From: Verrucomicrobiota bacterium
GTDB taxonomy: Bacteria > Verrucomicrobiota > Verrucomicrobiia > Limisphaerales > CANJXF01
Assembly: GCA_038214755.1 (NCBI GenBank)
Contig: JBBQRQ010000036.1
Span: forward strand, 1-45,104
Direction: 5' to 3'
Length of the DNA: 45,104 nt
Positions 16,552 to 41,724 of the stretch are shown piece by piece. Numbering within the stretch: position 1 is the first letter of the stretch; every line of letters begins with the position of its first letter. Made by a program: the position numbers and the translations under genes. The notes under the pieces are model-generated. The model did not search any database. It had not been told where the DNA came from and saw only the letters and a list, made by a program, of their open reading frames with translations.

Positions 16552-17846
16552 CGTTCGTAAATCGGCAGGAACCGATAATTCAACGCCAGCGAAAGCAGCG
16601 AAGCGGACGTGGCGAAGGTCGATCCGAATTGCCCCTCCCAGTTTCCTTCGGCGCTTTGCGATGCTTTTAGTGTCGCAATATTTTTACGGTTCCAAACCTG
16701 CCACGCTTGCGGTGATCCCTGGAAAAACGCCTGCGACGCGTAATACAAATAATATTGTCCGTAATTTTGGTCGGGCGGAGTTTTTTTCAAATACTCAAAA
16801 GCGGTTTGAAATGATTTGGAATTTTTTTCTTTGGCGAGCGACAAAACCAGACAACCGATCGCCGCGCGCGCGGCGTTCGGTCCCGCAGGAGAACTGTAGC
16901 CGAACCCGCCCTCCGCCGTTTGCATTCTGGCAAAAAACTTCAGCCCTTTTTCGATGGCATCTTCCGGCACGGCAATGCCCGCGTTGCGCGCGGCGAAGAG
17001 CGCGACCATTTGCGCGCCGCTGACCGTCGTGTCGGCGTCAGGGCTTTCCGGCGCGTAACGCCAGGCACCCAGTGGGTTGTTCGCTTGCGAAGTCAAAATC
17101 AATTGCACCGCCTTGAGCAAAGCCGGCCCAATCCGCGCGTCATCGACCATCCCGTACGCTTCCGCCAAAGCGAGGGTGGCGAAGCCGTGGTTGTACATGG
17201 TCTTGCCGATGTAGCCGGTTTTTGGATTGGCCTGCTTGAGTATAAAATCCAGCCCGTGGCGAATCGATTCGCTGTAAGGACCGAAATTGGGATCGTCCCC
17301 GTGCGCCAACATGCTGAGGACAGAAAAACCGACCACGGCTGGCTCGCCGCCGTATGGCAAATCTTTCCAATTGCCTTCGCTCGTTTGATTGCGCATGAGA
17401 AATTGAAGCCCCTTCGTGTAAATGCGCTCGACGTCCTTCGCCGCGATGTCCGATTTTTCAACGAAAAGTTCCTGAGCGTTTGCAGAGAGGAAACCAAAAA
17501 TAAAAATAGAAAGTGTCAGAGAAAAAACGCTCGCCCTCACCCCAGCCCTCTCCCCCAGGAGAGGGAGGGTCCGCCAGCCGCGTTGGTAAATACATAACCG
17601 CAATCTCGCGCTGAATAAATTGGATAGCCGGCATCTCCGGGTTGGGCCGAATAAATTGGATAACTGCAATCTCTGGGTTGCACTGGATAAATTCGATAAC
17701 TGCAATCTCGTGGCTGCGCTGAAAAAACTTCTCCCTCTCCTCGGGGGAGAGGGCTGGGGTGAGGGCGAGCGTTTCATTCCCGCCAACGCTTTTCCTGCCC
17801 ATAAGCTACTGATTAGAAACAAAAAAATTAAACCTGCAAACATCAT
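16548..17846 (-). CDS. Prenyltransferase/squalene-oxidase repeat (alpha/alpha barrel) exported protein
   Basis: QW-like repeats (NQTSEGNW, MQTAEGGFGY, SQSAEGNW), MYNHGFATLALAEAYG, GAWRY..DADTTVS; start may be ATG 17777. Confidence 0.8.
   Translation of the reverse strand: MMFAGLIFLFLISSLWAGKALAGMKRSPSPQPSPPRRGRSFFSAATRLQLSNLSSATQRLQLSNLFGPTRRCRLSNLFSARLRLCIYQRGWRTLPLLGERAGVRASVFSLTLSIFIFGFLSANAQELFVEKSDIAAKDVERIYTKGLQFLMRNQTSEGNWKDLPYGGEPAVVGFSVLSMLAHGDDPNFGPYSESIRHGLDFILKQANPKTGYIGKTMYNHGFATLALAEAYGMVDDARIGPALLKAVQLILTSQANNPLGAWRYAPESPDADTTVSGAQMVALFAARNAGIAVPEDAIEKGLKFFARMQTAEGGFGYSSPAGPNAARAAIGCLVLSLAKEKNSKSFQTAFEYLKKTPPDQNYGQYYLYYASQAFFQGSPQAWQVWNRKNIATLKASQSAEGNWEGQFGSTFATSASLLSLALNYRFLPIYER
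17525..17774. repeat. REP/MITE-like element with internal 36-bp tandem repeats, in-frame in CDS
   Basis: Perfect 32-bp inverted arms (17525-17556, 17743-17774); internal units start at 17613, 17649, 17685, 17721. Confidence 0.9.
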
Positions 17847-20800
17847 CAGTTCGACTCCTGCTCAATCGCTTTAAAATAATTTTCCAGTGTCTCGCGAAAT
17901 TCCGTCGGTAAACTGATCCCCGCCGCGCCGCTCGCTTTTTCCACTCTGCGCCCTTCGCGACCTCGGCCATTTGCATCTCCGTCAGCGGGTCCACCGGCCT
18001 TCTCAGTCGAGCCGCCCGACTGGTTCCAGACGCCGCGCGGATTCAGCGCCATCGCTTCACCCGGTTTATTTTGCGGAGACATCATTTGCATAAGAAACGC
18101 CATTTGTTCCGCCGCGCTTTCGCCTTCGCCGTCCTGCGGAGGCGAGGAAGAATTTTGTCGCTTCGCTTGTTCGTTGATTAAATTGATCAAGTCCGTCAGC
18201 AGATCGACCGACTTCACTTGCGCCGCCCAAGTCGTTTTGTCCGTCTGCGGTTTTTGCAAAAGCAATTCAGCTTCACTCATGGCCTGGCCAGTTTGTTGAT
18301 ACGGTTCAATCAACGGCGGCAATTTATTCTCTTTGGACAAACCGGCCACATCATCTCCCAATTTTTTTTGCGCGCCAGAAAGTGCGCCGGCGCGCTCCTT
18401 GTAATTGGTTTCATCGCCGCGTTGTTCATCGAGCAAACGAGTTTGCTCGCGCAACGTGATTTCCTTTTCGCGCAGCCGGAGCAACGCCACCAAAGTTTTT
18501 GTCATGTCGAGCGGCGGCTCTCCGCTCTGCCCACTTCCTTTTGCGCTGCTCGATTCCTCTTTTGGCGGTTCCAGTTTGTCCGCCCACTTTCCGAAGCGCT
18601 CGGCCCAAGCGCTCAAATTTTTTGTCGCTTCCATCGCAATGTTATCTTTGATGAAACCGCCCAGCCGCTCTAATTCTTCGCTCGTCTTCGCCTCGGAAAT
18701 TTCCTTGCTCACTTCGCCGTAATTTTTCTTCTGCGTCCGCTCGAAGAACCGGTTGATCTCATTCTGCAACTGCTGCGACTCCGTCTGCGTTGCCTCCTGA
18801 CGATTGGCCAAAACCGTCCCGACCTTTCGAAATTTTTCCGGCAATTCCTTGGGCAACATCCCAATGGTTTCAGGAATGATTTTCTGCAACTCGCCGCTGA
18901 TCTCCGTTTCCGTCGAGCCGACTTTCCGCAATCGTTCCGCCAGGGTCAGCGCCTGCAACTCATCCAGGTCCTTGTTCACCTTGCCTTGCATTTTTTCCAG
19001 CGCCTCCAGAATTTCCTGCTCCTTTTTCTGCGCGTCGGCCAAATCTTTTTTCCTCGAACCCGCGCTGGAATTTTTCTGCGCCGACTTCAATTTCTCACCC
19101 GCCGACTTCATCTCCTTTTGCGCGAGGTTCTGCATCTCCTGCAAATTTTTGGCCCACTCTTGCAACGCTTGTTCCGTGAAAACCGGGTTCTTCAACCCTT
19201 CCTGCAACGTTCGCATTCCTTCCTTCGCCAGTTGTTCAAGGTTCTTCGCATTGCGCTCCTGCTCTTCATTCACTTTGCCGATGCGATCGGTTTTTTGTTG
19301 TTCGGAAAGTTTTTCGTTTTCCTGAAGCTCACTCGTATTCGCCATCACTTTTTCTTCGAGCCGCGACACTTCCTCGACTCGCGCCAAAAGCGATTCCAGC
19401 CTTTGCCGAACCAGCTCGGAATGTTTTTCTTTGCCGAGAACGTGAATGCGATGAACGGAGGATTCGGTCCGTTCGCGCTCAGGAAAATAGTCGCGGGCAA
19501 AGGCGATCAGTTCAACGGAACTGTCTTCTGGAACCTGGAAAATGGCGGGACTCCAGCGAAATATTTTCTCGAAAAGTCTTTCGTGCCGCGCTCTCGGCTC
19601 AATTTTTATTTCCGTGGTCATGCTGCCCGACGGGCGAATCGAATCGCTTTCAAAATTCCAACTCAATCCCAAATCGCGCACGCCGAAGTCGTCTTTGCCG
19701 GCCGCCCGGATTTCCAAAACATCGCTGTCGAGCATCGCGACATCGCTCGGCAAATCCGGCAGCGCGGGCGTCGGCGGCAAATCTTTTTGACGTTGAATCG
19801 AGAGTTTCCACAGCGCGGCGTTGCTCAAACCGAATCGATCGCGCCAAAGAAATGAAAGTTGCGCGGTTTGATCATCGAATGTCCTGGTGGAAAATTCATC
19901 GCCGGAAATCTGCAACGGCTCCGAAAGATCTGTGGACAGGAACGCCGATTTCCCAATCGGCATCACGGCGAGGGGTGGGCCGACACGAGTCGAACTGGAG
20001 TTCGGCGTTCCGTTTGTGGTGATAAAAACGCGCGCCGTTTCCAGCTCGCGACTGATCTTTCCGCGCAAAACAAATTTGCTTCCTTCGAGCAAATTCAAAT
20101 TTCCATTGGCGAGAACCTGATTGGTGGGGAGCGTTTGCAAATAGTCGGGCAACTGCACCGCTGCCGAAATTTGTTTCAACGCCGGACGATGCGTTGGAAT
20201 AATCGCCACGTCGCGCGTTGCATCGCCCAGCTTGATTCGCAAAATTCCATTTTGAATTTGCGCGGGAACTTCAAGGTGGATTTCGCTTCCATGAACCTTT
20301 GCAGAAACAGACGTTTGCATCGCGATTTTTGCATTCGCCCGCGCTGGTTTCCAAAAGGAGCGATACGCCACTTGCGCGTTGAGCGAAAAGTTTTCTCCAT
20401 GCGGCACGACAAGCTCTTTGGGCAACTCCGCAATTTGCACGAGCGTGTAGCGCGAGATTTCAGCGAGCGGCGCGATCCAACGGTGGAACACATTTTGACC
20501 GAGGGCAGGAACCAGCGCGCACAAAATAAAAACCAAGACGGCCAAGCCAGCGGTCACCGCGATGATTTTTTTTGCCGACGAAGTTTGCACCGCTTCGCGG
20601 AAATCGAATTGGGCGGTTTCATCCGCGACTTGGTTTATGGCGGCGCGGTAAAGTTCAGGAGAGAAATTTGCGTAATGTTTGCTCTCGCTCGACAGTTCAA
20701 CAATGCCGAGCAAGCGGTCGCCGAGGAGTCGAAACTTTTTTTGCACGATCAGCGACAAAGCGCGCCAATCGCGTCGCAGGACAATCCAGCGGAACGACCA

Positions 20801-21043
20801 TCGCATCACCGCAAGAATGATCGTCACCAGTGCGGCAAACAACAGAAGCGCGCGAAACCAAGTTGGAGTTTCCCAAAAGCGATCGGAAAAAAATAGAAGC
20901 GCGTAAGAACAAATCGCTCCCAAAAAGCCGATGCAGACCGCCGTCGTGGTCTCGACTTTCCAAAGGCGTCGTTCCAGCGAAGCGAATTGCTTCTGCAAAC
21001 TTTCCGGCAAAGAAATTTCGTTATTGCTCTTGTTGTTCGACAC
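17846..21043 (-). CDS. Large membrane-anchored coiled-coil protein (DUF4175-like)
   Basis: Three N-terminal TM segments, Ig-like part with D.PP / DDFGV motifs, long Q/E/K coiled coil, C-terminal LPTEFRETLENYFKAI; GTG 21043 chosen from promoter position. Confidence 0.8.
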   Translation of the reverse strand: MSNNKSNNEISLPESLQKQFASLERRLWKVETTTAVCIGFLGAICSYALLFFSDRFWETPTWFRALLLFAALVTIILAVMRWSFRWIVLRRDWRALSLIVQKKFRLLGDRLLGIVELSSESKHYANFSPELYRAAINQVADETAQFDFREAVQTSSAKKIIAVTAGLAVLVFILCALVPALGQNVFHRWIAPLAEISRYTLVQIAELPKELVVPHGENFSLNAQVAYRSFWKPARANAKIAMQTSVSAKVHGSEIHLEVPAQIQNGILRIKLGDATRDVAIIPTHRPALKQISAAVQLPDYLQTLPTNQVLANGNLNLLEGSKFVLRGKISRELETARVFITTNGTPNSSSTRVGPPLAVMPIGKSAFLSTDLSEPLQISGDEFSTRTFDDQTAQLSFLWRDRFGLSNAALWKLSIQRQKDLPPTPALPDLPSDVAMLDSDVLEIRAAGKDDFGVRDLGLSWNFESDSIRPSGSMTTEIKIEPRARHERLFEKIFRWSPAIFQVPEDSSVELIAFARDYFPERERTESSVHRIHVLGKEKHSELVRQRLESLLARVEEVSRLEEKVMANTSELQENEKLSEQQKTDRIGKVNEEQERNAKNLEQLAKEGMRTLQEGLKNPVFTEQALQEWAKNLQEMQNLAQKEMKSAGEKLKSAQKNSSAGSRKKDLADAQKKEQEILEALEKMQGKVNKDLDELQALTLAERLRKVGSTETEISGELQKIIPETIGMLPKELPEKFRKVGTVLANRQEATQTESQQLQNEINRFFERTQKKNYGEVSKEISEAKTSEELERLGGFIKDNIAMEATKNLSAWAERFGKWADKLEPPKEESSSAKGSGQSGEPPLDMTKTLVALLRLREKEITLREQTRLLDEQRGDETNYKERAGALSGAQKKLGDDVAGLSKENKLPPLIEPYQQTGQAMSEAELLLQKPQTDKTTWAAQVKSVDLLTDLINLINEQAKRQNSSSPPQDGEGESAAEQMAFLMQMMSPQNKPGEAMALNPRGVWNQSGGSTEKAGGPADGDANGRGREGRRVEKASGAAGISLPTEFRETLENYFKAIEQESN
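19939..20011. repeat. REP-like element in-frame in the DUF4175-like gene
   Basis: Terminal inverted repeat ggaacgccga / tcggcgttcc; same family as 2719-2741. Confidence 0.7.
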
Positions 21044-21051
21044 GCAGCGAC

Positions 21052-21079
21052 AAAGTAGCAGCGAAGCAAAGTTGGACAA
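21052..21079 (-). promoter_or_regulatory. Putative sigma70 promoter of the DUF4175-like gene
   Basis: TTGTCC-16-TACTTT with extended TG, 8 nt before GTG. Confidence 0.55.
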
Positions 21080-21139
21080 AGTTTTGTTTCGGACGGAACA
21101 AACGTTGGTTTTCGGAAAGAACCCGGCTAAATTGCCCGC

Positions 21140-21370
21140 ATGAAAACTTTAGATCGCGTTACACTAAATCCCAACGTGATGGGCGGACGTCCTTGCCTTC
21201 GCGGGATGCGGGTGACGGTTGGGATGATTGTCGGCCTGATCGGCGCTGGCCATAGCAACGCTGAGATTTTGAGACTTTATCCCTATTTGGAAGGAGAAGA
21301 CATTTCGCAGGCGCTCAAATATGCCGCGTGGCGCGCCGAAGAAATAGAATTGCCGCTCCAGCCGGCATGA
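21140..21370 (+). CDS. DUF433 antitoxin
   Basis: RVTLNPNVMGGRPCLRGMRVTV...YPYLEGEDISQALKYAA; TTGGTT-17-TAAATT-6-ATG. Confidence 0.92.
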   Translation: MKTLDRVTLNPNVMGGRPCLRGMRVTVGMIVGLIGAGHSNAEILRLYPYLEGEDISQALKYAAWRAEEIELPLQPA

Positions 21371-21741
21371 AGTTGGTCGTAGACATGAATTTGTCGCCCG
21401 AGTGGGCCCCGATTTTAATCAAGGCAGGTTGGGAAACTGTTCATTGGTCCACCATCGGAAATCCTCGTGCCGAAGACTCCGAAATTATGAAATGGGCGCT
21501 GGAACACAACCATGTGGTTTTCACTCATGATCTGGATTTTGGAACTCTGCTCGCGCTCACCAATGCCTCTGGCCCCAGCGTGGTTCAAGTCCGCACTGAA
21601 GACGTAACGCCGCAAGCCATCGGATTGCTTGTGATCAATGCGTTGAGGCAGTTTGAAAAACTTCTGGAACAAGGCGCATTGATTGTCATTGATGAAGCGC
21701 GCCTTCGCGCGCGCATTCTTCCATTACGCGAAAAAACGTAG
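21367..21741 (+). CDS. DUF5615 PIN-like toxin
   Basis: MKLVVDMNLSP, EDSEI, VFTHDLDFG; ATGA overlap with DUF433. Confidence 0.9.
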   Translation: MKLVVDMNLSPEWAPILIKAGWETVHWSTIGNPRAEDSEIMKWALEHNHVVFTHDLDFGTLLALTNASGPSVVQVRTEDVTPQAIGLLVINALRQFEKLLEQGALIVIDEARLRARILPLREKT

Positions 21742-21763
21742 TGCCGTTTTTAACCAAGCCTCG

Positions 21764-21964
21764 AAAAAACAGAAACGCATACGAATAAATCGCTCCCGGC
21801 AAGCCGACACAAGCCGCCGCTGCAGTTTCAATCCGCAAAAGCCGTCGTTCGAGCAAAGCAAATTGTCGTTTCAAACTTTCCGGCAGCGAGATTTCGTTAT
21901 GGCTCTTGTGATTCGACACGCAGCGACAAAGTTGCAGCGAAGCAAAGTTGGAGAAAGTTTTGTT
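21764..21964 (-). pseudogene. Truncated duplicate of the promoter and 5' end of the DUF4175-like gene
   Basis: Aligns to 20888-21088 at offset 876; EISLPESLKRQFALLERRL vs EISLPESLQKQFASLERRL. Confidence 0.88.
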
Positions 21965-22053
21965 CGCCGTCGCAAAATTCGCGTTCAAACGCCCTAGGGA
22001 TTTGGTAAAAAACATTCGTGAGTTGGGCAAAAGCTGATAAGCTCATCAAACCA

Positions 22054-23382
22054 ATGGTCACGCGATTCCACCGTTATTTTCTCATTGCTTTGCTCGTTGC
22101 GCTGGCACCGTTGGCGCGTGCCCAAAACGTGGAGGTATTGCATTATTTCGATGTTACGAACGGTGCGGGGCCTAGCATTGATCTCGTCGATAGCCAACCA
22201 GGATTGTTTTTGGGCGGGACGGTCAGTGGAGGGTCATCTGGAATGGGAACCGTTTTTCAAATTGGAACTAATGGGATGATGGTCTTCCCAGTTTCATTTA
22301 ACGGCTCAAATGGCTCTCGCCCTTCTGGGAAACTAGTTCCTGCGGGCAACCATTACTATTACGGGACGACCCAGCAAGGTGGATCCTCGAACGTGGGAAC
22401 AATTTTTAAAACCCAAGGATTTCAGATTATCACTTTGTGGTCGTTCGCTGGAACCAATGGAGGCCGCCCGGAGGGATTAATGTTGGGGTTGGACGGATAT
22501 TTTTATGGAACAACTTTTTTAGGTGGGAGTAGTAATCGCGGAACTATTTTCCAGTTCAAGGATCAATCGTTCGCAGGTTCGGCTACATTGACTGAATTGT
22601 TTAGTTTTCTGGAAGCGAGCGGAACGCATTCGTTGATGCAAGCGGCGGACGGAAATTTCTACGGAACGACATCTTCTGGCGGAATCAGCAACAACGGAAC
22701 AGTTTTCACGTTTTCGACGAACGGCACGTATTCAACTCTGGTTTTTTTTACCGGCACAAACGGTTCGCATCCTGGGTTTCCGTTGATCCAAGCAGATAAC
22801 GGCGATTTTTACGGCACAACACAGGACGGCGGGGCAGAAAATTACGGAACGGTTTTCAAAATGGACGCTGCGGGAAATTTAACCACGTTGGCGTCTTTTA
22901 GTAACACGAATGGCTCGAAGGTGAGAACCTTGATGCAGGCAAGCGATGGAGTTTTTTACGGGACAACTTATGCAAGCATTCAAGGTGTTCCTTCAGGAAC
23001 TGTTTTCAGAATCACTCCGGCTGGAACACTGACGACACTCGCTTTTTTTTCCGGATTAAGCGGAGAAGGTCCTTCGACGAAGTTGTTTGAAAAGAACGGA
23101 TACTTTTATGGAACTACGGTCGCAGGTGGAAATTTTCCGGGAGCAGGAACCTTTTACCGACTCGCAATGCCGGTCACTTTACGTTCGCGGGTGACCGGCA
23201 ACGAAATAATTCTCTTTTGGCCGACAAATCAAATCGGGTTCACATTGCAAGCAGCAGCGGATTTAAATTCTTCCACCAACTGGATTGATTCAACTAATTC
23301 GCCAGCGGTCGTGGGCGCGCAGTTCACCGTCACCAATTCCCTTTCCGCAAATGCACAGTTTTATCGGTTGAAGAAACCCTAA
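22054..23382 (+). CDS. Choice-of-anchor GloVer tandem-repeat secreted protein
   Basis: Signal peptide ending ARA; repeats DGxFYGTTxxGG...GTVFx; C-terminal WP...FTLQ...TNW...FYRL domain. Confidence 0.85.
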   Translation: MVTRFHRYFLIALLVALAPLARAQNVEVLHYFDVTNGAGPSIDLVDSQPGLFLGGTVSGGSSGMGTVFQIGTNGMMVFPVSFNGSNGSRPSGKLVPAGNHYYYGTTQQGGSSNVGTIFKTQGFQIITLWSFAGTNGGRPEGLMLGLDGYFYGTTFLGGSSNRGTIFQFKDQSFAGSATLTELFSFLEASGTHSLMQAADGNFYGTTSSGGISNNGTVFTFSTNGTYSTLVFFTGTNGSHPGFPLIQADNGDFYGTTQDGGAENYGTVFKMDAAGNLTTLASFSNTNGSKVRTLMQASDGVFYGTTYASIQGVPSGTVFRITPAGTLTTLAFFSGLSGEGPSTKLFEKNGYFYGTTVAGGNFPGAGTFYRLAMPVTLRSRVTGNEIILFWPTNQIGFTLQAAADLNSSTNWIDSTNSPAVVGAQFTVTNSLSANAQFYRLKKP

Positions 23383-23573
23383 AGTCCTCGCAACGTCCGT
23401 TGCGTCACATTCCGCGACTTCATCGCGGCGATTAAATACCTAAGCGTATCCGCCGCGTCATCACCGCCCACTCCTACTTCATCCGCGTCCACTTTCAAAA
23501 CATCTTCCTGCCGGTGCGGATCATGTTGCAGCGAAGGCAAACATTCCAGCAACCGTCCGCACCGCCGATGAAT
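23379..23573 (-). pseudogene. C-terminal fragment of a phage terminase large subunit
   Basis: IHRRCGRLLECLPSLQHDPHRQEDVLKVD...GDDAADTLRY resembles the terminase nuclease C-terminus (C..LI..L...D / DDxxDALRY); no N-terminal ATPase present. Confidence 0.65.
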
Positions 23574-23575
23574 GT

Positions 23576-23760
23576 TTATACCATTCCCGCCAACTTGCGA
23601 CCCGTCCAATAAATCACGAGTAAGAACAGAATCAATCCGCCCCACCATGGACTCGACCATAGACGGATTCGTTTTTCGATGGGCTTCGGTTCGGGCAACA
23701 AAGAAATTTTCTGAACGATTTTTTCGAGGTCTTCGTAGGAGACGCTTGCGCCGCCGGTCA
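23576..23760 (-). pseudogene. Displaced duplicate of the 3' end of the vWA gene
   Basis: Aligns to 24502-24686 at offset 926; last ~61 residues differ at only 2 amino acids. Confidence 0.92.
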
Positions 23761-23804
23761 GAAGACCGCTTGTCATCGCTGGTCTTGAAGTTTAGCGTTA
23801 CGAC

Positions 23805-24032
23805 ATGCCGATTTTTTTGCCATTGAAAAAGATGTCGCGGGACGAAAAACTTCGCGTCATGGAGGCGATCTGGACGGATCTTTCGCAGGACGAAAAGCAG
23901 TTCGAATCGCCCGCGTGGCACGAACAAGCACTTCATGAAACCGAACAATTAGTCAAAACGGGCGAGGCGAAATTCTCCGATTGGGATGAGGCAAAAAAAC
24001 GGATGCGTCGAAAAGCTGAAAAGCTGGCGTGA
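23805..24032 (+). CDS. Putative addiction module antitoxin component
   Basis: MSRDEKLRVMEAIWTDLS...SPAWH...FSDWDEAKKR; TTGTCA-17-TAGCGT-6-ATG. Confidence 0.88.
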   Translation: MPIFLPLKKMSRDEKLRVMEAIWTDLSQDEKQFESPAWHEQALHETEQLVKTGEAKFSDWDEAKKRMRRKAEKLA

Positions 24033-24328
24033 ACCTTCAAATCCTCAGTCTGGCGGAAGCGGACTTGCTCGACGGCTTTCAGTTCTACGAGCGCCAGGCA
24101 ACGGGAGTCGGCTGGTATTTTCTCGAAACACTTCATTCAGATATTGAATCACTTCGTCTTTACGCGGGCATTCATTCCTTGATTTTCGGCTACCACCGTT
24201 TGCTGTCCAAGCGTTTTCCATTTGCGATCTACTACGACATCTCCGAGGAAAATATCAGAGTGTGGCGCGTGCTTGATTGTCGGCGCGATCCTCACTGGAT
24301 TCGTAGCCAGCTAAAACCTAAAAACTAA
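24029..24328 (+). CDS. RelE/ParE-family toxin
   Basis: AEADLLDGFQFYERQATGVG.YF, RLLSKRFPFAIYY, VLDCRRDP; GTGA overlap with antitoxin. Confidence 0.9.
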   Translation: MNLQILSLAEADLLDGFQFYERQATGVGWYFLETLHSDIESLRLYAGIHSLIFGYHRLLSKRFPFAIYYDISEENIRVWRVLDCRRDPHWIRSQLKPKN

Positions 24329-24350
24329 ATGTGAAACGCTGCGAATAAAA

Positions 24351-24500
24351 ATGGGGAGCGCACGCCTCCGGCGTGTGGTTTTCGGCGCGTCGCGCCGAAA
24401 ACTGCGTTTCACAAATTATTTAAATTGGGAATGAGGGAGATAGATAACGAGGGTTCGGGCGCGACGCCCGAACCGGCACGCGAGACGCGTGCGCTCCCAT
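24351..24500. repeat. REP-like element (ggagcgc family) directly after the vWA stop
   Basis: gggagcgcacgc ... gcgtgcgctccc ends, each arm with an internal hairpin (gttttcggcgcg..cgcgccgaaaac; gttcgggcg..cgcccgaac). Confidence 0.85.
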
Positions 24501-24501
24501 T

Positions 24502-26757
24502 TCAAACCATCCCCGCCAACTTTCTTCCCGTCCAATAAATCGCGAGCAAGAACAGAATCAATCCGCCCCACCACGGGCTCGACCAAAGGCGGATTCGTTT
24601 TTCGATGGGTTTGGGTTCCGGCAGTAGAGAAATTTTCTGGATGATTTTTTCGAGGTCTTCGTAGGAGACGCTTGCGCCGCCGGTGAGTCCGGCGATTTCG
24701 CGCAAGACCTGGCTGTTCACGGGCTGGCCAATTTTTTCGCGCAAAGGTTGGTTTACTAGAATTTCTGTTTCCAAACTTCGCGAGTTTTTCTCGGCGGCTA
24801 GTTGGATTTTATATTTTCCACCGGCTTGCGCGATGAAGCTCGATTTGAAAACGCCCCAACCGCCTTCGAGCGCGGAAAATTCCAATCGCTCGCTGCGATT
24901 ATTTGGCGAAATAATTTTTCCCGTCACAGTTTCGTTTTCCGCTGGATAACCTGCCGTGTCCAAAACGGTTCCTTGCAGAAAAACGGTGTCGCCGACGTGC
25001 GGCGTTTCGGGACTGTAGCTCAAACGAATTCCTTCCTTCTCCGACAAATGCCGTTGATGCGCCATCCAGCGAACGACCTGGCTCCAGAAGCGATAATGAA
25101 ATTTATCTTCGACGCCGCGACGCCATCGCCACGCGCTGTCGCTGCCCATGAATAAAATTTTTCCAGTTCCAGCGGCGCGAGTGGCGAGTAGCGGCATTCG
25201 GCCAAAAGAATTTCGCAGTGAAGAATGCACCGCCAAGACTTCAGAGCCGGGGCGACTTTTTTCCACAGCAGCCGACCAATAAAATCCGGGAAGAAGTTTC
25301 CACAATTCGTCGTTGTGATTTTCGTCGGAGTCAAAACGCGTCAGCAAATGATGTTTCCCCATCGACGAAAGCAGAAGTTGCGATTCGTTTTGCAAACCGG
25401 TGCCCTGGGGTTTCTTTTCGTCGAGAACGACAGGATAAAGATCGGCCAACGGACTTTTCAAAAAGGTCAATTCACGTCCGCGTCGGCCCGGCAGAAAAAT
25501 CAAGCCGCTCGATTGTTGTTCGACCAAACCTTTGATGAGTTCGGCATCTTTCTCCGTGAGTTCGCCGCTGCCGATGCCGACGTCGCCGAGAAAAATCACG
25601 TCGTAACTGGAAATCTGTTCCTTCGTGCTCGGAAACGCGGGCAGATAATCTTTCCCGCCGCCCATGCCGATTTCGGGATGAAACAAAATGCAGTGCATCT
25701 CGACGCCGGGATCGCGCGCGAGTGCGTTGCGCAGGTAACGATATTCCCAGCGCGGCAACGAATCGACGACGAGCACCTTGAGTTTGTCCTCGCGAATGTT
25801 GATGCGAAAATTTTGCTCGTTGTTCTCCGCGATTCCTTCGTCCGGCTGGCCGGGCAATTTGAGTGTCAACGTCGCTTCGCCCATCGCATGCGGCGACCAC
25901 AAAATCGCATCCTGAACTTCGCCCAGCGGCGGGATGACAATTTCCTTTTTCACTTCGTCCCAATTCGCTTCGCCGAGAGAAATTTCCGTTCGAACTTCAT
26001 GCGGCAAATGACTGCGAATTTTGAATGGAATCGCAATTTGCTCGCCGAACAATCCGTAAGACGGCGCGGAAACATTTTCCAAAACCAGATCGGGAATGGG
26101 CGTCTCGCGTCCAACGGTCACGGCGAAAACGGGAATGTTTTGTTCGCGCAAACGTGTTGCGGCCACGAGCGGAGATTTGCCCTGGTTCCAATCGCCGTCG
26201 GTCAAAAGCAAAACGGCTTTGAGATTTTTCTGCTGTTGCGCGGCGGTTTCGAGAACGCGATTTAGATCCGTGCCGTCGTCGGTCTGCGGAGCATTCGTGT
26301 TTGAAGTTGGCGCGGAAAAATCCGTGAGAACAACTTTGCCCGATTTTTCCAACGGCTTCCAAAATTGCGACCGCCGTTTTTGCTGGAGCCAATCAGCGCG
26401 AGCGACGGCGCGATTCGTTTGCGTAGCAGCCGACGTGAGGAGGCTCTGATTAGTTGTTTGAGGAATTGAAATGAGCCTCCTCACGTCGGCTCCTACGATG
26501 TCACGAGTATTCATGCTTGCGGACGCGTCCATGAGCACGGCGATTTCTGGATTCTCCGTTCGTTTGATTTGCCGAACAAATTCCGGGCGAAGCAAAGTCA
26601 CGACCAGCAGCGTGATGATGAAAAGTCGCAGGCCTTCGAGCGTCGTCACCGCCTTGCGTCCTTCACTGGCCCGCCGATGCGAAACAAAAAGCCAAATCGC
26701 CGCCAGCCATACGATGAGCGCGACGACTGTGACTGGAGTTGAGGCGGCGAAATTCAT
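24502..26757 (-). CDS. vWA-domain plus class-I glutamine-amidotransferase-like membrane protein
   Basis: MIDAS DASASM, T(DL), LLLTDG; PRWEYRYLRNAL, YDVIFLGDV, WRWR, FWSQVVRWMA; TM helices at both ends. Confidence 0.85.
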   Translation of the reverse strand: MNFAASTPVTVVALIVWLAAIWLFVSHRRASEGRKAVTTLEGLRLFIITLLVVTLLRPEFVRQIKRTENPEIAVLMDASASMNTRDIVGADVRRLISIPQTTNQSLLTSAATQTNRAVARADWLQQKRRSQFWKPLEKSGKVVLTDFSAPTSNTNAPQTDDGTDLNRVLETAAQQQKNLKAVLLLTDGDWNQGKSPLVAATRLREQNIPVFAVTVGRETPIPDLVLENVSAPSYGLFGEQIAIPFKIRSHLPHEVRTEISLGEANWDEVKKEIVIPPLGEVQDAILWSPHAMGEATLTLKLPGQPDEGIAENNEQNFRINIREDKLKVLVVDSLPRWEYRYLRNALARDPGVEMHCILFHPEIGMGGGKDYLPAFPSTKEQISSYDVIFLGDVGIGSGELTEKDAELIKGLVEQQSSGLIFLPGRRGRELTFLKSPLADLYPVVLDEKKPQGTGLQNESQLLLSSMGKHHLLTRFDSDENHNDELWKLLPGFYWSAAVEKSRPGSEVLAVHSSLRNSFGRMPLLATRAAGTGKILFMGSDSAWRWRRGVEDKFHYRFWSQVVRWMAHQRHLSEKEGIRLSYSPETPHVGDTVFLQGTVLDTAGYPAENETVTGKIISPNNRSERLEFSALEGGWGVFKSSFIAQAGGKYKIQLAAEKNSRSLETEILVNQPLREKIGQPVNSQVLREIAGLTGGASVSYEDLEKIIQKISLLPEPKPIEKRIRLWSSPWWGGLILFLLAIYWTGRKLAGMV
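26423..26496. repeat. GTAG-type REP element in-frame in the vWA gene
   Basis: gtagcagccgacgtgaggaggctc ... gagcctcctcacgtcggctcctac; encodes VGADVRRL...SLLTSAAT. Confidence 0.88.
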
Positions 26758-26789
26758 CGGCAACTTATTGGCTGGAGTTGGAACTCCAA

Positions 26790-31762: not shown

Positions 31763-31996
31763 ATGAACTCTTTGCTTGATCGCATCACCATCGACCCGGA
31801 CATTTGTCACGGCAAACCCGTCATCCGACGCTTGCGCTATCCGGTGGAATCGATTTTGGAATATCTGGCGGCAGGAGATTCGTTCGATGAAGTGCTGGCC
31901 GAATTTCCAGATTTGGAGCGGGAGGATTTACTGGCGTGCCTGGAATTCGCGGCGCACTCACTCAAAGTGAAAAGTCAGCATCTTGTTTTGACATGA
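31763..31996 (+). CDS. DUF433 antitoxin
   Basis: RITIDPDICHGKPVIR.LRYPV...FPDLEREDLLACL; TTGCCA-17-TAATTT-6-ATG. Confidence 0.92.
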   Translation: MNSLLDRITIDPDICHGKPVIRRLRYPVESILEYLAAGDSFDEVLAEFPDLEREDLLACLEFAAHSLKVKSQHLVLT

Positions 31997-32346
31997 AGTT
32001 TCTGGTGGATGCGCACCTGCCACCGGGTTTGTGCCAATTATTGCAGGCCACCGGACACGACGCGCGACACACAATTCAACTTGCGGCGCAAAATCGGACT
32101 ACGGACACCGTCATCAACGCTTTGTCTATTTCAGAAGAACTGGTGGTGATTTCAAAAGACACAGATTTTTATTATTCGCATCTATTGCGGCGTGAGCCTT
32201 ACAAACTGGTGCTTGTGCGCACAGGAAATATCGGAGTGCGCGAGCTGCAAGAATTGTTCAGACGGAATCTGCCATCGATTGAACAAGCGTTGCAGAAATA
32301 TTCGTTGGTAGAAATCTATCGCGAGACAGTCCGGGTGATTGTTTAA
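31993..32346 (+). CDS. DUF5615 PIN-like toxin
   Basis: MKFLVDAHLP, TTD..I, VISKDTDF, RTGNI; ATGA overlap. Confidence 0.9.
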   Translation: MKFLVDAHLPPGLCQLLQATGHDARHTIQLAAQNRTTDTVINALSISEELVVISKDTDFYYSHLLRREPYKLVLVRTGNIGVRELQELFRRNLPSIEQALQKYSLVEIYRETVRVIV

Positions 32347-34635: not shown

Positions 34636-35270
34636 TGGAGGAACGGACTTCCGGTTTGATCTTGCGCGTTCGTCCTCTGACGGAAACCAGTTTGATTGTC
34701 CAGTGGCTCACGCCGGATTTGGGTCGGGTGGCCACGCTCGCAAAAGGCGCGCGCCGACCCAAATCTCCTTTTCGCGGCAAGCTCGATTTATTTTATCTGG
34801 CCGACTTCAGTTTTCTACGGAGCCGTCGGAGCGAGCTTCATATTTTGCGCGAAGTCGTTTTGCGCGAAACGCACAGCGCGCTCCGCCACGAACTCGGCTA
34901 TTTGCAACAAGCCAGTTATTGTTCCGCGCTGATCGAGCAAACCACCGAAACGGAAACTCCCCTGGGAAATATTTTTCAATTGCTGTCGGGTGTGCTCGCG
35001 CATTTGCCCTCGCAAGCGCCGCAGCCGAAAACCATTTTCGCGTTCGAAATGAAGCTGTTGAACGAACTCGGCTTAAAACCCGATTTCGCAGGAGCAAAAT
35101 TAAGCGCCGGTTCAAAACAAATTCTACGGAGGCTCCTCGAACTCGGCTGGCCGGAATTAGCGCGGTTGAAATTGAGTGAAGTTCAACTTGCGGAAATTCG
35201 GCAATTCCTGGAGGGCTTTCTGATTTTTCATTTGGGAAAATTTCCGAAAGGAAGATTTTCGATTCAATAA
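34635..35270 (+). CDS. recO: DNA repair protein RecO
   Basis: GLILRVRPLTETSLIV..LT...G...LAKGARRPKS.F.GKLDLF; phoH-ybeY-recO context. Confidence 0.9.
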   Translation: MEERTSGLILRVRPLTETSLIVQWLTPDLGRVATLAKGARRPKSPFRGKLDLFYLADFSFLRSRRSELHILREVVLRETHSALRHELGYLQQASYCSALIEQTTETETPLGNIFQLLSGVLAHLPSQAPQPKTIFAFEMKLLNELGLKPDFAGAKLSAGSKQILRRLLELGWPELARLKLSEVQLAEIRQFLEGFLIFHLGKFPKGRFSIQ

Positions 35271-35587
35271 TTTCGCAGACGGAAACACTCAATAAGTTTT
35301 CGGCTGATTTGAATTTGACGTTCCGGGATGACAAAACCTCTGCGTTCCAGAAAACGGTCGCGCTCCAACAAGTGAATCAAATCGCAACGAACCGCCGACT
35401 CCCAATCCAATCCGTCCGCTTGATCCAGCAAAACCTCGTGGAGACTGAGCGGCCTGCCGCGCAAGCTGACGCACAAAAGTCCGTTGACGTTCTTGCGCGT
35501 CGCCGCGCGTTCGTCGATGGAAAGGATGACCACGGGATGGGGTTGCTCCTCGGTGAACGGGAAGAGGAAAATGTCCCACTGCTTCAT
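35264..35587 (-). CDS. PemK/MazF-family toxin
   Basis: MKQWDIFLFPF...HPVVILS, EVLLD..DGL...S.VRCD.I; coupled to the upstream small gene. Confidence 0.8.
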   Translation of the reverse strand: MKQWDIFLFPFTEEQPHPVVILSIDERAATRKNVNGLLCVSLRGRPLSLHEVLLDQADGLDWESAVRCDLIHLLERDRFLERRGFVIPERQIQISRKLIECFRLRNY

Positions 35588-35811
35588 TCCTCGAGCGTGG
35601 GTTTCGAGTCGCGGCAGATGCGTTCTTCAAACGCGGCGTCCTCCGCGTCGCGGTAGCACTCCGCAAAATATCCAGGTGGACGCAGCGGAACTTCCTGCAC
35701 CAGACGCACCATTTCTCCTCCGACTTTGATCGCGACTTCCTCCCCTTTCAAGGCCTTGCGCACTGCATCAGGCAAATTCCGTTGCGCTTCGTCCAATGTC
35801 AGGGCTGTCAT
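35584..35811 (-). CDS. Antitoxin (Phd/YefM-like N-terminus)
   Basis: LTLDEAQRNLPDAVRKALKGEEVAI; ATGA overlap with toxin; TTGCCT-17-TAGGGT-7-ATG. Confidence 0.78.
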   Translation of the reverse strand: MTALTLDEAQRNLPDAVRKALKGEEVAIKVGGEMVRLVQEVPLRPPGYFAECYRDAEDAAFEERICRDSKPTLEE

Positions 35812-40885: not shown

Positions 40886-41338
40886 TCAGCGCAAAACCTT
40901 GGGCAACACCGTCAAACCAACTGCGCTTGCCAGCTTTCGCTGGTTTATGTCGAACGACAGAAATCTTTTTGCTCTCAGTTCAGCCGCCAGCGCGACGTGC
41001 AACAAATCCAACGAGCGACACCCGATTTCTTGCGTGTGCTTATTTCCGAATTCTTCGGCCCGCTTCAAAATATTTGTCCATTCCGAAGGGGTGTGCGGCA
41101 AAATCGTTTCTTGGCGGACATCGTCGTCTGCGAGGCGCAAAATCTGACGCGCTTCGCCGGGTTGGATTTTTCGAGTGAAAACAAGCCGACGAATGCTGTT
41201 GCGAAATTCCATTCGGTTCAACGGCGTGAAGGGAAGCGCCTCGCCAATCGAAAATAAAATCGCCAGTGCTTCCTTCGTGTCATCGCTGGCGACATACAGA
41301 GAAACCCAAAAACTGGTGTCGCCGTAAGCGTCCGTCAT
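40886..41338 (-). CDS. VapC-family PIN toxin
   Basis: YGDTSFWVSLY, E..N, RSLDLLHVALA, FLSFD..Q.KLA. Confidence 0.88.
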   Translation of the reverse strand: MTDAYGDTSFWVSLYVASDDTKEALAILFSIGEALPFTPLNRMEFRNSIRRLVFTRKIQPGEARQILRLADDDVRQETILPHTPSEWTNILKRAEEFGNKHTQEIGCRSLDLLHVALAAELRAKRFLSFDINQRKLASAVGLTVLPKVLR

Positions 41339-41724
41339 TTTTCCCGTCCTTGCGTCGCCCCCAAAATTTCGGAGCGCGACAACCGTTTCTGGCCAAAGAT
41401 TTTTTTCAAACGCGCGGCGTGATCGGGGAACTTTTTTTTCGTAGGCGGTGATTCTGCTGGAAAGCGGGCGAACCCCTTTCCGTTGCGCGGGCCCCGCACC
41501 GTCTTGCCCATTTCTACCTGGTCGTAAACCGCATCTCCCGGCGCGTACCCGGCAAGAAATTGTTCGGCAGTAAGACGCGACCAATCCGCGTCCTCGTTTT
41601 CGTCGGAAGGAAACAAAACGATCACGCGCACTTTTTTCGCAGGCGGAAGATTTTTGGCGAGATGACGCGGCACGGGCAGTTCACCTTGCTTGGTGATTTC
41701 AGACATGAATTCGACTGCTTGCAT
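41335..41724 (-). CDS. Antitoxin-like protein, apparently a fusion of two antitoxin fragments
   Basis: N-half ...VRVIVL...DWSRLTAEQFLAGY..GDAVYD; C-half RNGKGFAR...PDHAARLKKIFG; ATGA overlap with toxin; TTGTCA-17-TAGTTT-7-ATG. Confidence 0.65.
   Translation of the reverse strand: MQAVEFMSEITKQGELPVPRHLAKNLPPAKKVRVIVLFPSDENEDADWSRLTAEQFLAGYAPGDAVYDQVEMGKTVRGPRNGKGFARFPAESPPTKKKFPDHAARLKKIFGQKRLSRSEILGATQGREK

Follow-up and report, generated by a model that had tools for sequence, protein, structure and literature searches.

The VWA gene end and its insert

The DNA analysed here (the window) is a 45,104-nucleotide (nt) stretch, positions 1–45,104 of contig JBBQRQ010000036.1, from the genome of a Verrucomicrobiota bacterium, which we call G000. 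It carries a gene for a VWA-domain membrane protein whose 3′ end is present twice, once in place and once as a detached stub, with a small toxin–antitoxin (TA) pair between the two copies. An earlier note, made from the sequence alone, had read this arrangement as the insertion of a circle or foreign allele that carried a gene tail, a repetitive extragenic palindromic (REP) element and a TA pair and entered at a fixed core. The locus consists of the following features.

24502–26763, minus strand: intact host gene, VWA-domain membrane protein of 753 amino acids (PF00092, E = 2.6e-6); its tail is present in 127 of 301 genomes of the order
24501–24687, minus strand: copy A, the in-gene tail, last 61 codons and stop codon TGA (repeat alignment)
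24643–24684, minus strand: 42-bp block, identical to 23717–23758, carrying one allele private to G000 (sequence comparison)
24354–24498, no strand assigned: REP-like multi-copy hairpin of 145 nt (z = −7.2; arms match the genome 11 and 20 times)
24029–24328, plus strand: putative ParE/RelE-superfamily toxin of 99 amino acids (weak PF05016 match, E = 0.0057, below cut-off)
23805–24032, plus strand: antitoxin, putative addiction module component of 75 amino acids (PF09720, E = 1.9e-13, 50.7 bits, cut-off 23.3)
23770–23798, plus strand: putative promoter-like site, TTGTCA, 17 nt, TAGCGT, found by eye 6 nt before the antitoxin ATG
23575–23761, minus strand: copy B, the tail stub with stop codon TAA, within an open 66-amino-acid frame from an ATG at 23776 (repeat alignment, list of open reading frames)

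Copies A and B form an ungapped direct repeat with 89% identity that terminates at the stop codon. The repeat measures 182–187 bp around a 744-bp gap and matches the genome at these two places only. What the earlier note had reported of its geometry was exact: the tail occurs twice, 926 bp apart, around nothing but the REP-like element and the TA pair, the 42-bp block is identical in both copies, and the distal 141 nt differ at 20 sites, the stop codon (TGA/TAA) among them, with only two amino-acid changes (I/V and A/V). Divergence of the 61 tail codons was calculated by the Nei–Gojobori method. Between copy A and copy B, 17 differences are synonymous and three are non-synonymous (dS 0.56, dN 0.022, ω 0.04, binomial p = 1e-8). 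Judged by this substitution pattern, both tails are shown to have evolved as working alleles, as the note had supposed.

The insert holds two open reading frames (ORFs) only, antitoxin and toxin, and no integrase, again in agreement with the note. The two ORFs overlap as in an operon; the antitoxin scores above its family cut-off and the toxin below. The toxin is conserved in the related genome G006 (dN 0.047, dS 0.73), which indicates purifying selection. Searches of PHROGs and NCBIfam with the toxin gave no match, and a sequence search of the PDB gave no credible one. A consensus promoter scanner made no call at the promoter-like site; similarity of G000 to G006 and G007 stops just upstream of it. 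An ATG in the reverse of its −35-like box shares the reading frame of the stub, in G000 (66 amino acids; window 23576–23776) as in G006 (90 amino acids; L031 1029–1301), and a small membrane peptide could be made from this frame.

The locus was compared with eight genomes of the same genus, six of which yielded an orthologous VWA tail. These relatives are other species, at about 85–93% identity. In G001 and G004 the site is empty and the next gene begins 7–10 nt past the VWA stop codon, and in G003 the tail is single. G006 carries the same TA pair (87% nucleotide identity) without a REP element, together with a different middle gene and a head stub, i.e. a duplicated 5′ end of the next operon gene; its tail stub extends further into the gene and has an internal deletion. 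G007 has another REP element and the antitoxin with a truncated toxin, without a stub. G005 has a REP element and a short stub with two stop codons, without a TA pair between the copies, on a contig that ends about 170 nt later. The REP-like sequence differs among G000, G005 and G007. In VWA gene coordinates the stub begins at nt 2071 in G000, at 2055 or further in in G006 and at 2146 in G005, which does not support a fixed attachment core. Among 61 genomes the TA lineage turned up in 3, and in each of them behind the VWA gene. Outside the genus, none of 121 tail-bearing genomes (G009 included) has a nearby stub; a second tail match occurs in 10 genomes, on another contig or far off, nine of these matches lying in long open frames and one (G042) in a 79-amino-acid frame.

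Within G000 and within G006 the 42-bp block is the same in copies A and B, and between genomes it differs at 1–6 sites. The pair of each of these two genomes shares one core allele that is absent from six other genes of the genus. Perfect 42-mers shared between species occur in 0–4% of gene-body windows. In the distal tails all copies are about equally different, and the stubs of G000 and G006, at 19 of 141 sites, are no closer to each other than to the in-gene tails and are not sister copies. Between species, divergence over the last 47 codons is about double that of the gene body in most pairs (G000–G006: 20 differences against a mean of 9.4), and the TA pair has a dS of 0.83 against 0.30 for the body.

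Gene content between the constant flanking genes varies among G000, G006, G001 and G004. In G003, G005 and G007 the operon of the VWA gene and the following 1077-amino-acid gene is split, and its genes lie on different contigs with other neighbours (L034, L035, L114, L115, L123); the operon slot may therefore also be a rearrangement point. In G005 a VWA tail stub and a head stub of the next gene stand together at an unrelated locus (L033, on C2, 1071–1328), beside an ORF that looks by eye like ruvA and a small antitoxin-like ORF, the latter also present in G003 and G007 close to the split operon. Cassettes can carry stubs along.

Gene-end duplications across the genome

The census of G000 started from a self-BLAST, which gave 439 nearby direct-repeat pairs. 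These were reduced to 358 by size, to 187 by copy number and to 83 by the presence of one copy in a gene; position then gave 41 tail pairs with the stub downstream and 18 head pairs with the stub upstream, in 55 host ORFs. Genes were taken from a home-made gene caller; the counts include pairs nested at a single gene, and an ilvD stub stands among the 55 hosts. The VWA locus is thus one instance of a genome-wide pattern and no special site. The repeats are 61–612 bp long and 75–98% identical. A repeat end no more than 10 nt from a stop codon was expected in 3 of the 83 pairs and observed in 35, of which 34 have the stub downstream; stubs that span a start codon lie upstream in 17 of 19 cases. 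The synonymous bias recurs, with ω values of 0.135 over the tail pairs and 0.141 over the head pairs and pN below pS in 56 of 59. Since the 24 stubs with stop codons or frameshifts have an equally low ω (0.10–0.16), selection on the stubs does not explain this bias. Hosts include gatA, purB, deoC, pyc, accC, tkt, ilvD, acs, ftsK, mutS, lipA, serS, pheT, nadA and apt.

The Pfam scan of the cargo covered 107 of 112 ORFs; four window ORFs and one ilvD stub were examined separately. A Pfam match was obtained for 46 of the 107, 20 of them in TA-type families, among which we count DUF433 and DUF5615, taking these to be TA families. The other matches include sigma factors, efflux, immunoglobulin-repeat and helix-turn-helix proteins. 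No recombinase or transposase family was found among the 107 ORFs, 61 of which have no Pfam match at all. Antitoxin loci of two families carry a gene-end scar in 9 of 47 cases, compared with 3 of 99 control genes (Fisher p = 0.002) and 9 of 90 random small ORFs (p = 0.18). An enrichment of REP elements in the inserts was looked for with a crude 16-mer count as mask and not found: a high-copy element is present in 14 of 59 inserts (8/41 tail, 6/18 head) versus 1071 of 2146 ordinary gaps. Two tail duplications (C85:332–609 and C98:13540–13879) bracket only a REP-like element of 144 and 178 bp, respectively, and no gene. An identical core at the gene-proximal end was likewise rejected as a rule, tail mismatch by quarter being 0.098, 0.115, 0.107 and 0.135, with a sign test of 23:18 for tails and 9:8:1 for heads. 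Identical tracts are proximal, middle or distal, depending on the gene.

Relatives have stubs of their own, beginning at other points, behind four further genes: deoC, a type II topoisomerase subunit B gene, an fdhF-like gene and tkt. In none of the genes compared do the stubs of different genomes start at the same point. At ilvD (L062, C26:15370–26225) three tail stubs of about 510, 125 and 55–75 bp are nested, with different cassettes between them. The last 200 nt of the in-gene ilvD copy are foreign relative to G003, G005 and G007, and the last 130 nt fit a foreign in-gene copy with a native stub (16% versus 8–12% from relatives).

These results leave standing the earlier note's proposal of an allele swap, but not the specific unit. 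Local recombination at the 42-bp block is likely, judging from the identity of both copies and the private alleles in G000 and G006; a fixed core is not supported, given the variable stub starts and the 23 versus 18 pairs of the census. The REP element, which the note had counted as part of the unit, is missing from G006, is represented by other sequences in G005 and G007 and has a counterpart in few inserts. Specificity for TA pairs is not supported either, since much of the census cargo is of other kinds and G005 has both tails without a TA pair, a case that the note itself had named as speaking against it.

Probable recombination anchored in one gene end

We favour, with a probability of about 0.6, the reading that the duplication is a scar of homologous recombination with DNA of a related strain or species, in which one conserved gene end was the sole homology anchor. 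On the incoming DNA, a donor allele of the gene end would be joined to a small cassette, located past the stop codon or ahead of the start codon. One crossover within the gene end would leave the gene intact, and the other side would rejoin within the same gene end, illegitimately at the first event and via the cassette's own stub later. The cassette would end up between two gene-end alleles that are identical over a short stretch, the region of overlap between the crossovers, and the stubs would afterwards erode by deletion. For a cassette that brings a stub with it, each of the two arms would match the one tail of the recipient, and the private allele would be found in both cores because overlapping crossovers duplicate a short resident tract. 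The repeat would stop at the stop codon because the homology of donor and recipient stops there. Copy-to-copy divergence equals the divergence between species. G000 carries one ComEC match, two DprA matches and a PilB-type ATPase. Dependence on RecA, uptake by transformation and the order of events are presumed in this scheme. Linear DNA and a looped-out circle yield the same product and are indistinguishable here. The middle cassette of the operon gap may have come by ordinary two-flank exchange, possibly making the displaced stub itself foreign.

Several observations weigh against this reading. Of 14 control genomes, 10 have ComEC and DprA as well, and these genes do not demonstrate competence. 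The excess divergence of the tail is missing between G005 and G007 (13 versus 14.7 differences). The G000 stub is farther from the tails of G004, G005 and G007 than the in-gene copy is (dS 1.3–1.7 versus 0.66–0.76); the single circle insertion of the earlier note, which predicts a native stub, is not supported by this, and recombination at one anchor needs serial events wherever the stub is the more foreign copy. Over ten genes with relatives the polarity is star-like and mixed, the stub being the more foreign or decayed copy at the VWA gene and at several others. The relatives compared are different species. The initial illegitimate step is described as rare in excerpts of PMC5361080, and a shared junction motif or microhomology was not seen in the junctions, which were inspected by eye.

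The scars might instead be remnants of larger integrase-dependent elements, such as prophages, integrative and conjugative elements or cis-mobilizable elements, that sat at gene ends with a replacement tail and were reduced to their addictive TA pair. Integrase elements with a replacement 3′ end have their precedent in phage 21 and e14 at icd: the replacement tail shows mostly silent differences and the displaced stub lies downstream, as here, but they have an integrase and one fixed attachment core, whereas the VWA locus has neither a recombinase gene nor a fixed core. An orphan phage terminase stub adjoins copy B and keeps phage-borne DNA in play, the G006 stub shows that stubs erode by deletion, and G000 has five tyrosine-recombinase matches. 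None of these five lies inside a census bracket, in a search that did not extend to serine recombinases. With 55 host ORFs, both tails and heads, junctions at the same gene that differ between genomes and no recombinase family in the scanned cargo, we consider this origin unlikely. REP-associated HUH nucleases (RAYTs) could also cut and circularise single-stranded DNA beside REP elements, the circles then integrating by homology, as has been proposed for ISCR elements. There are 17 Y1_Tnp matches in G000, a REP-like element follows the stop codon in G000, G005 and G007, and the two REP-only brackets of G000 and that of G005 would fit. That high-copy elements are rarer in the inserts than in ordinary gaps, that G006 has the same TA pair and a stub without REP, and that the REP differs in each genome make such a route quite improbable.

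A local duplication within one lineage, with the stub selected as a small membrane protein or translation signal, would give the synonymous bias too, and copy B does lie in a frame open from the same ATG in G000 and G006. However, broken stubs have equally low ω, the G005 stub has two stop codons and the stubs of G000 and G006 are not each other's closest copies, and we give this explanation little credit. An assembly chimera of two strains, with and without the insert, was one of the refutations that the earlier note had named. The assembly is a short-read metagenome assembly. Run X2, in which the share of matching words was only 0.05, was set aside; run X1 may represent the source sample, and its Logan contigs are interrupted only at the 42-bp block and the REP element and give no phasing across the block. 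They show zero differences from the window, and their depth is 22.5 on the copy B side, 22.9 in the TA pair, 17 in copy A and 21.1 in the gene body, without amplification. This even depth of 17–23x argues against a chimera, as do the broken stubs found genome-wide and G006, which independently has the same order of tails and TA pair; we regard a chimera as very improbable indeed.

Beyond recombination at one anchor lies the more speculative idea, possible but in our judgement doubtful, that the bracketed cassette is a mobile element that needs no enzyme of its own. Its arms match one gene end; after looping out, or in the form of linear DNA, it would enter that gene again in other species of the genus and restore the duplication at every entry. 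If this is true, one conserved flank suffices for re-entry, the same TA pair behind the VWA gene in G000 and G006, with homogenised cores of their own and unrelated distal tails, represents two turns of the cycle, and TA addiction would block plain loop-out loss.

Among published systems the nearest is insertion with long target duplication, described for restriction–modification (R-M) inserts without mobility genes between long unique repeats (Furuta, Abe and Kobayashi 2010, PMC2853133). There the repeats often span a start or stop codon with the gene left intact, relatives have empty sites and the species are mostly naturally competent; the authors propose a cycle of release and reinvasion, the release step of which lacks experimental evidence. 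The VWA locus is alike in its small insert (<20 kb) without mobility genes, locus-unique repeat (>30 bp), intact gene and empty relatives G001 and G004, and a REP-like element is present. It differs in that the cargo is a PF09720 antitoxin with a ParE-like ORF, and elsewhere other small genes, not an R-M pair, so that self-made DNA breaks are no obvious cause; we therefore say that the locus works like a long target duplication and do not file it as one. The copies here are also 75–98% identical with a synonymous bias, which points to two alleles and not to a copied target, and about 55 sites occur in one genome. Homology-facilitated illegitimate recombination is a mechanism proposed for the displacement of type VI secretion effector and rhs tails in Vibrio (PMC5361080). 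Shared with the scheme proposed for our locus are one homologous anchor, one non-homologous joint, the old 3′ end downstream, serial stacking and the lack of an integrase. In Vibrio, however, a different toxin domain takes the place of the gene end, at a dedicated locus, whereas the housekeeping genes here receive an allele of their own end and duplication affects heads too.

In the minimal mobile elements of Neisseria, cassettes of varying content are exchanged by recombination in the conserved genes on either side (PMC3787668). The middle cassette here varies likewise between G000 and G006 and is absent from G001 and G004, but when crossovers take place in both flanks no gene end becomes duplicated, and here both flanking ends are; minimal mobile elements account for the variable slot and not for the duplication. 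In Streptococcus pneumoniae, transforming DNA can pair at two sites and thereby cause a duplication of resident sequence between sister chromatids (PMC3784515), which resembles our scheme, although those duplications span 100–900 kb and use insertion sequence repeats. Our literature search, from which subscription papers were largely absent, found no account of TA pairs between allele-diverged gene ends; Fig. S7 of PMC2853133 may show a similar divergence.

The geometry is thus already known; the present case contributes its scale in one genome, the share of TA pairs and a TA lineage whose junctions in two species are independent. TA pairs of the chromosome can make up islets of their own, and the fixation of horizontally acquired ones is not understood, according to excerpts of PMC2654758; gene-end scars at antitoxin loci offer a concrete entry route. 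The pattern extends long-target-duplication insertion past DNA-cutting cargo and implies mosaic ends of housekeeping genes (gatA, purB, accC, ilvD, mutS, serS, pheT) in the genus. Our data suggest that small gene cassettes enter by ordinary recombination with the DNA of relatives, without need of a mobile-element enzyme.

Further cassettes in the operon gap

Beyond copy B the operon gap holds further cassettes, including a second TA-like pair about 2 kb away.

23379–23573, minus strand: last 63 codons of a phage terminase large-subunit gene, left as an orphan stub (75–84% identity to the 120 homologues listed)
22018–23382, plus strand: middle cassette, secreted GloVer-repeat protein (TIGR03803, E = 9e-76)
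21764–21964, minus strand: head stub, a copy diverged to 80% identity from the 5′ end of the gene that comes next in the operon (repeat alignment)
21140–21741, plus strand: second TA-like pair, DUF433 (21140–21370) and DUF5615/PIN (21367–21741), inside the head duplication (Pfam)
20888–21088, minus strand: functional head of the 1077-amino-acid gene (17846–21079), which directly follows the VWA gene in G001 and G004

The head duplication (20888–21964, 80% identity, offset 876) surrounds the DUF433/DUF5615 pair. In G007 a 63-bp head stub at the 1077-amino-acid gene surrounds a different small gene pair. Three further TA-like pairs of the window, at 31763–32346 (DUF433/DUF5615), 35264–35811 (Phd-like/PemK) and 40886–41724 (PIN pair), showed no gene-end repeat of at least 60 bp. 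In G006 the place of the GloVer gene is taken by a different 198-amino-acid ORF.

The stop codon of the terminase stub overlaps that of the convergent GloVer gene. A full terminase gene was not found in G000, where tblastn with P0022 matches this stub only (amino acids 398–460), and PHROGs and NCBIfam gave no match to the stub. The names of its homologues point to Verrucomicrobiota. The stub suggests a former position of the GloVer cassette behind a phage terminase gene. A 79-bp piece related to the terminase stub lies at C1:37201–37278 of G000. Elsewhere in the genome (C119:3813–5683) a paralogous GloVer-like gene in two ORFs is followed by a PF09720/ParE-like pair, so that both cargo types are again adjacent. 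In the window, the upstream frame (17540–17846) of a squalene-cyclase-repeat gene consists of a hairpin element and short tandem repeats, and the start of this gene is probably near 17540.

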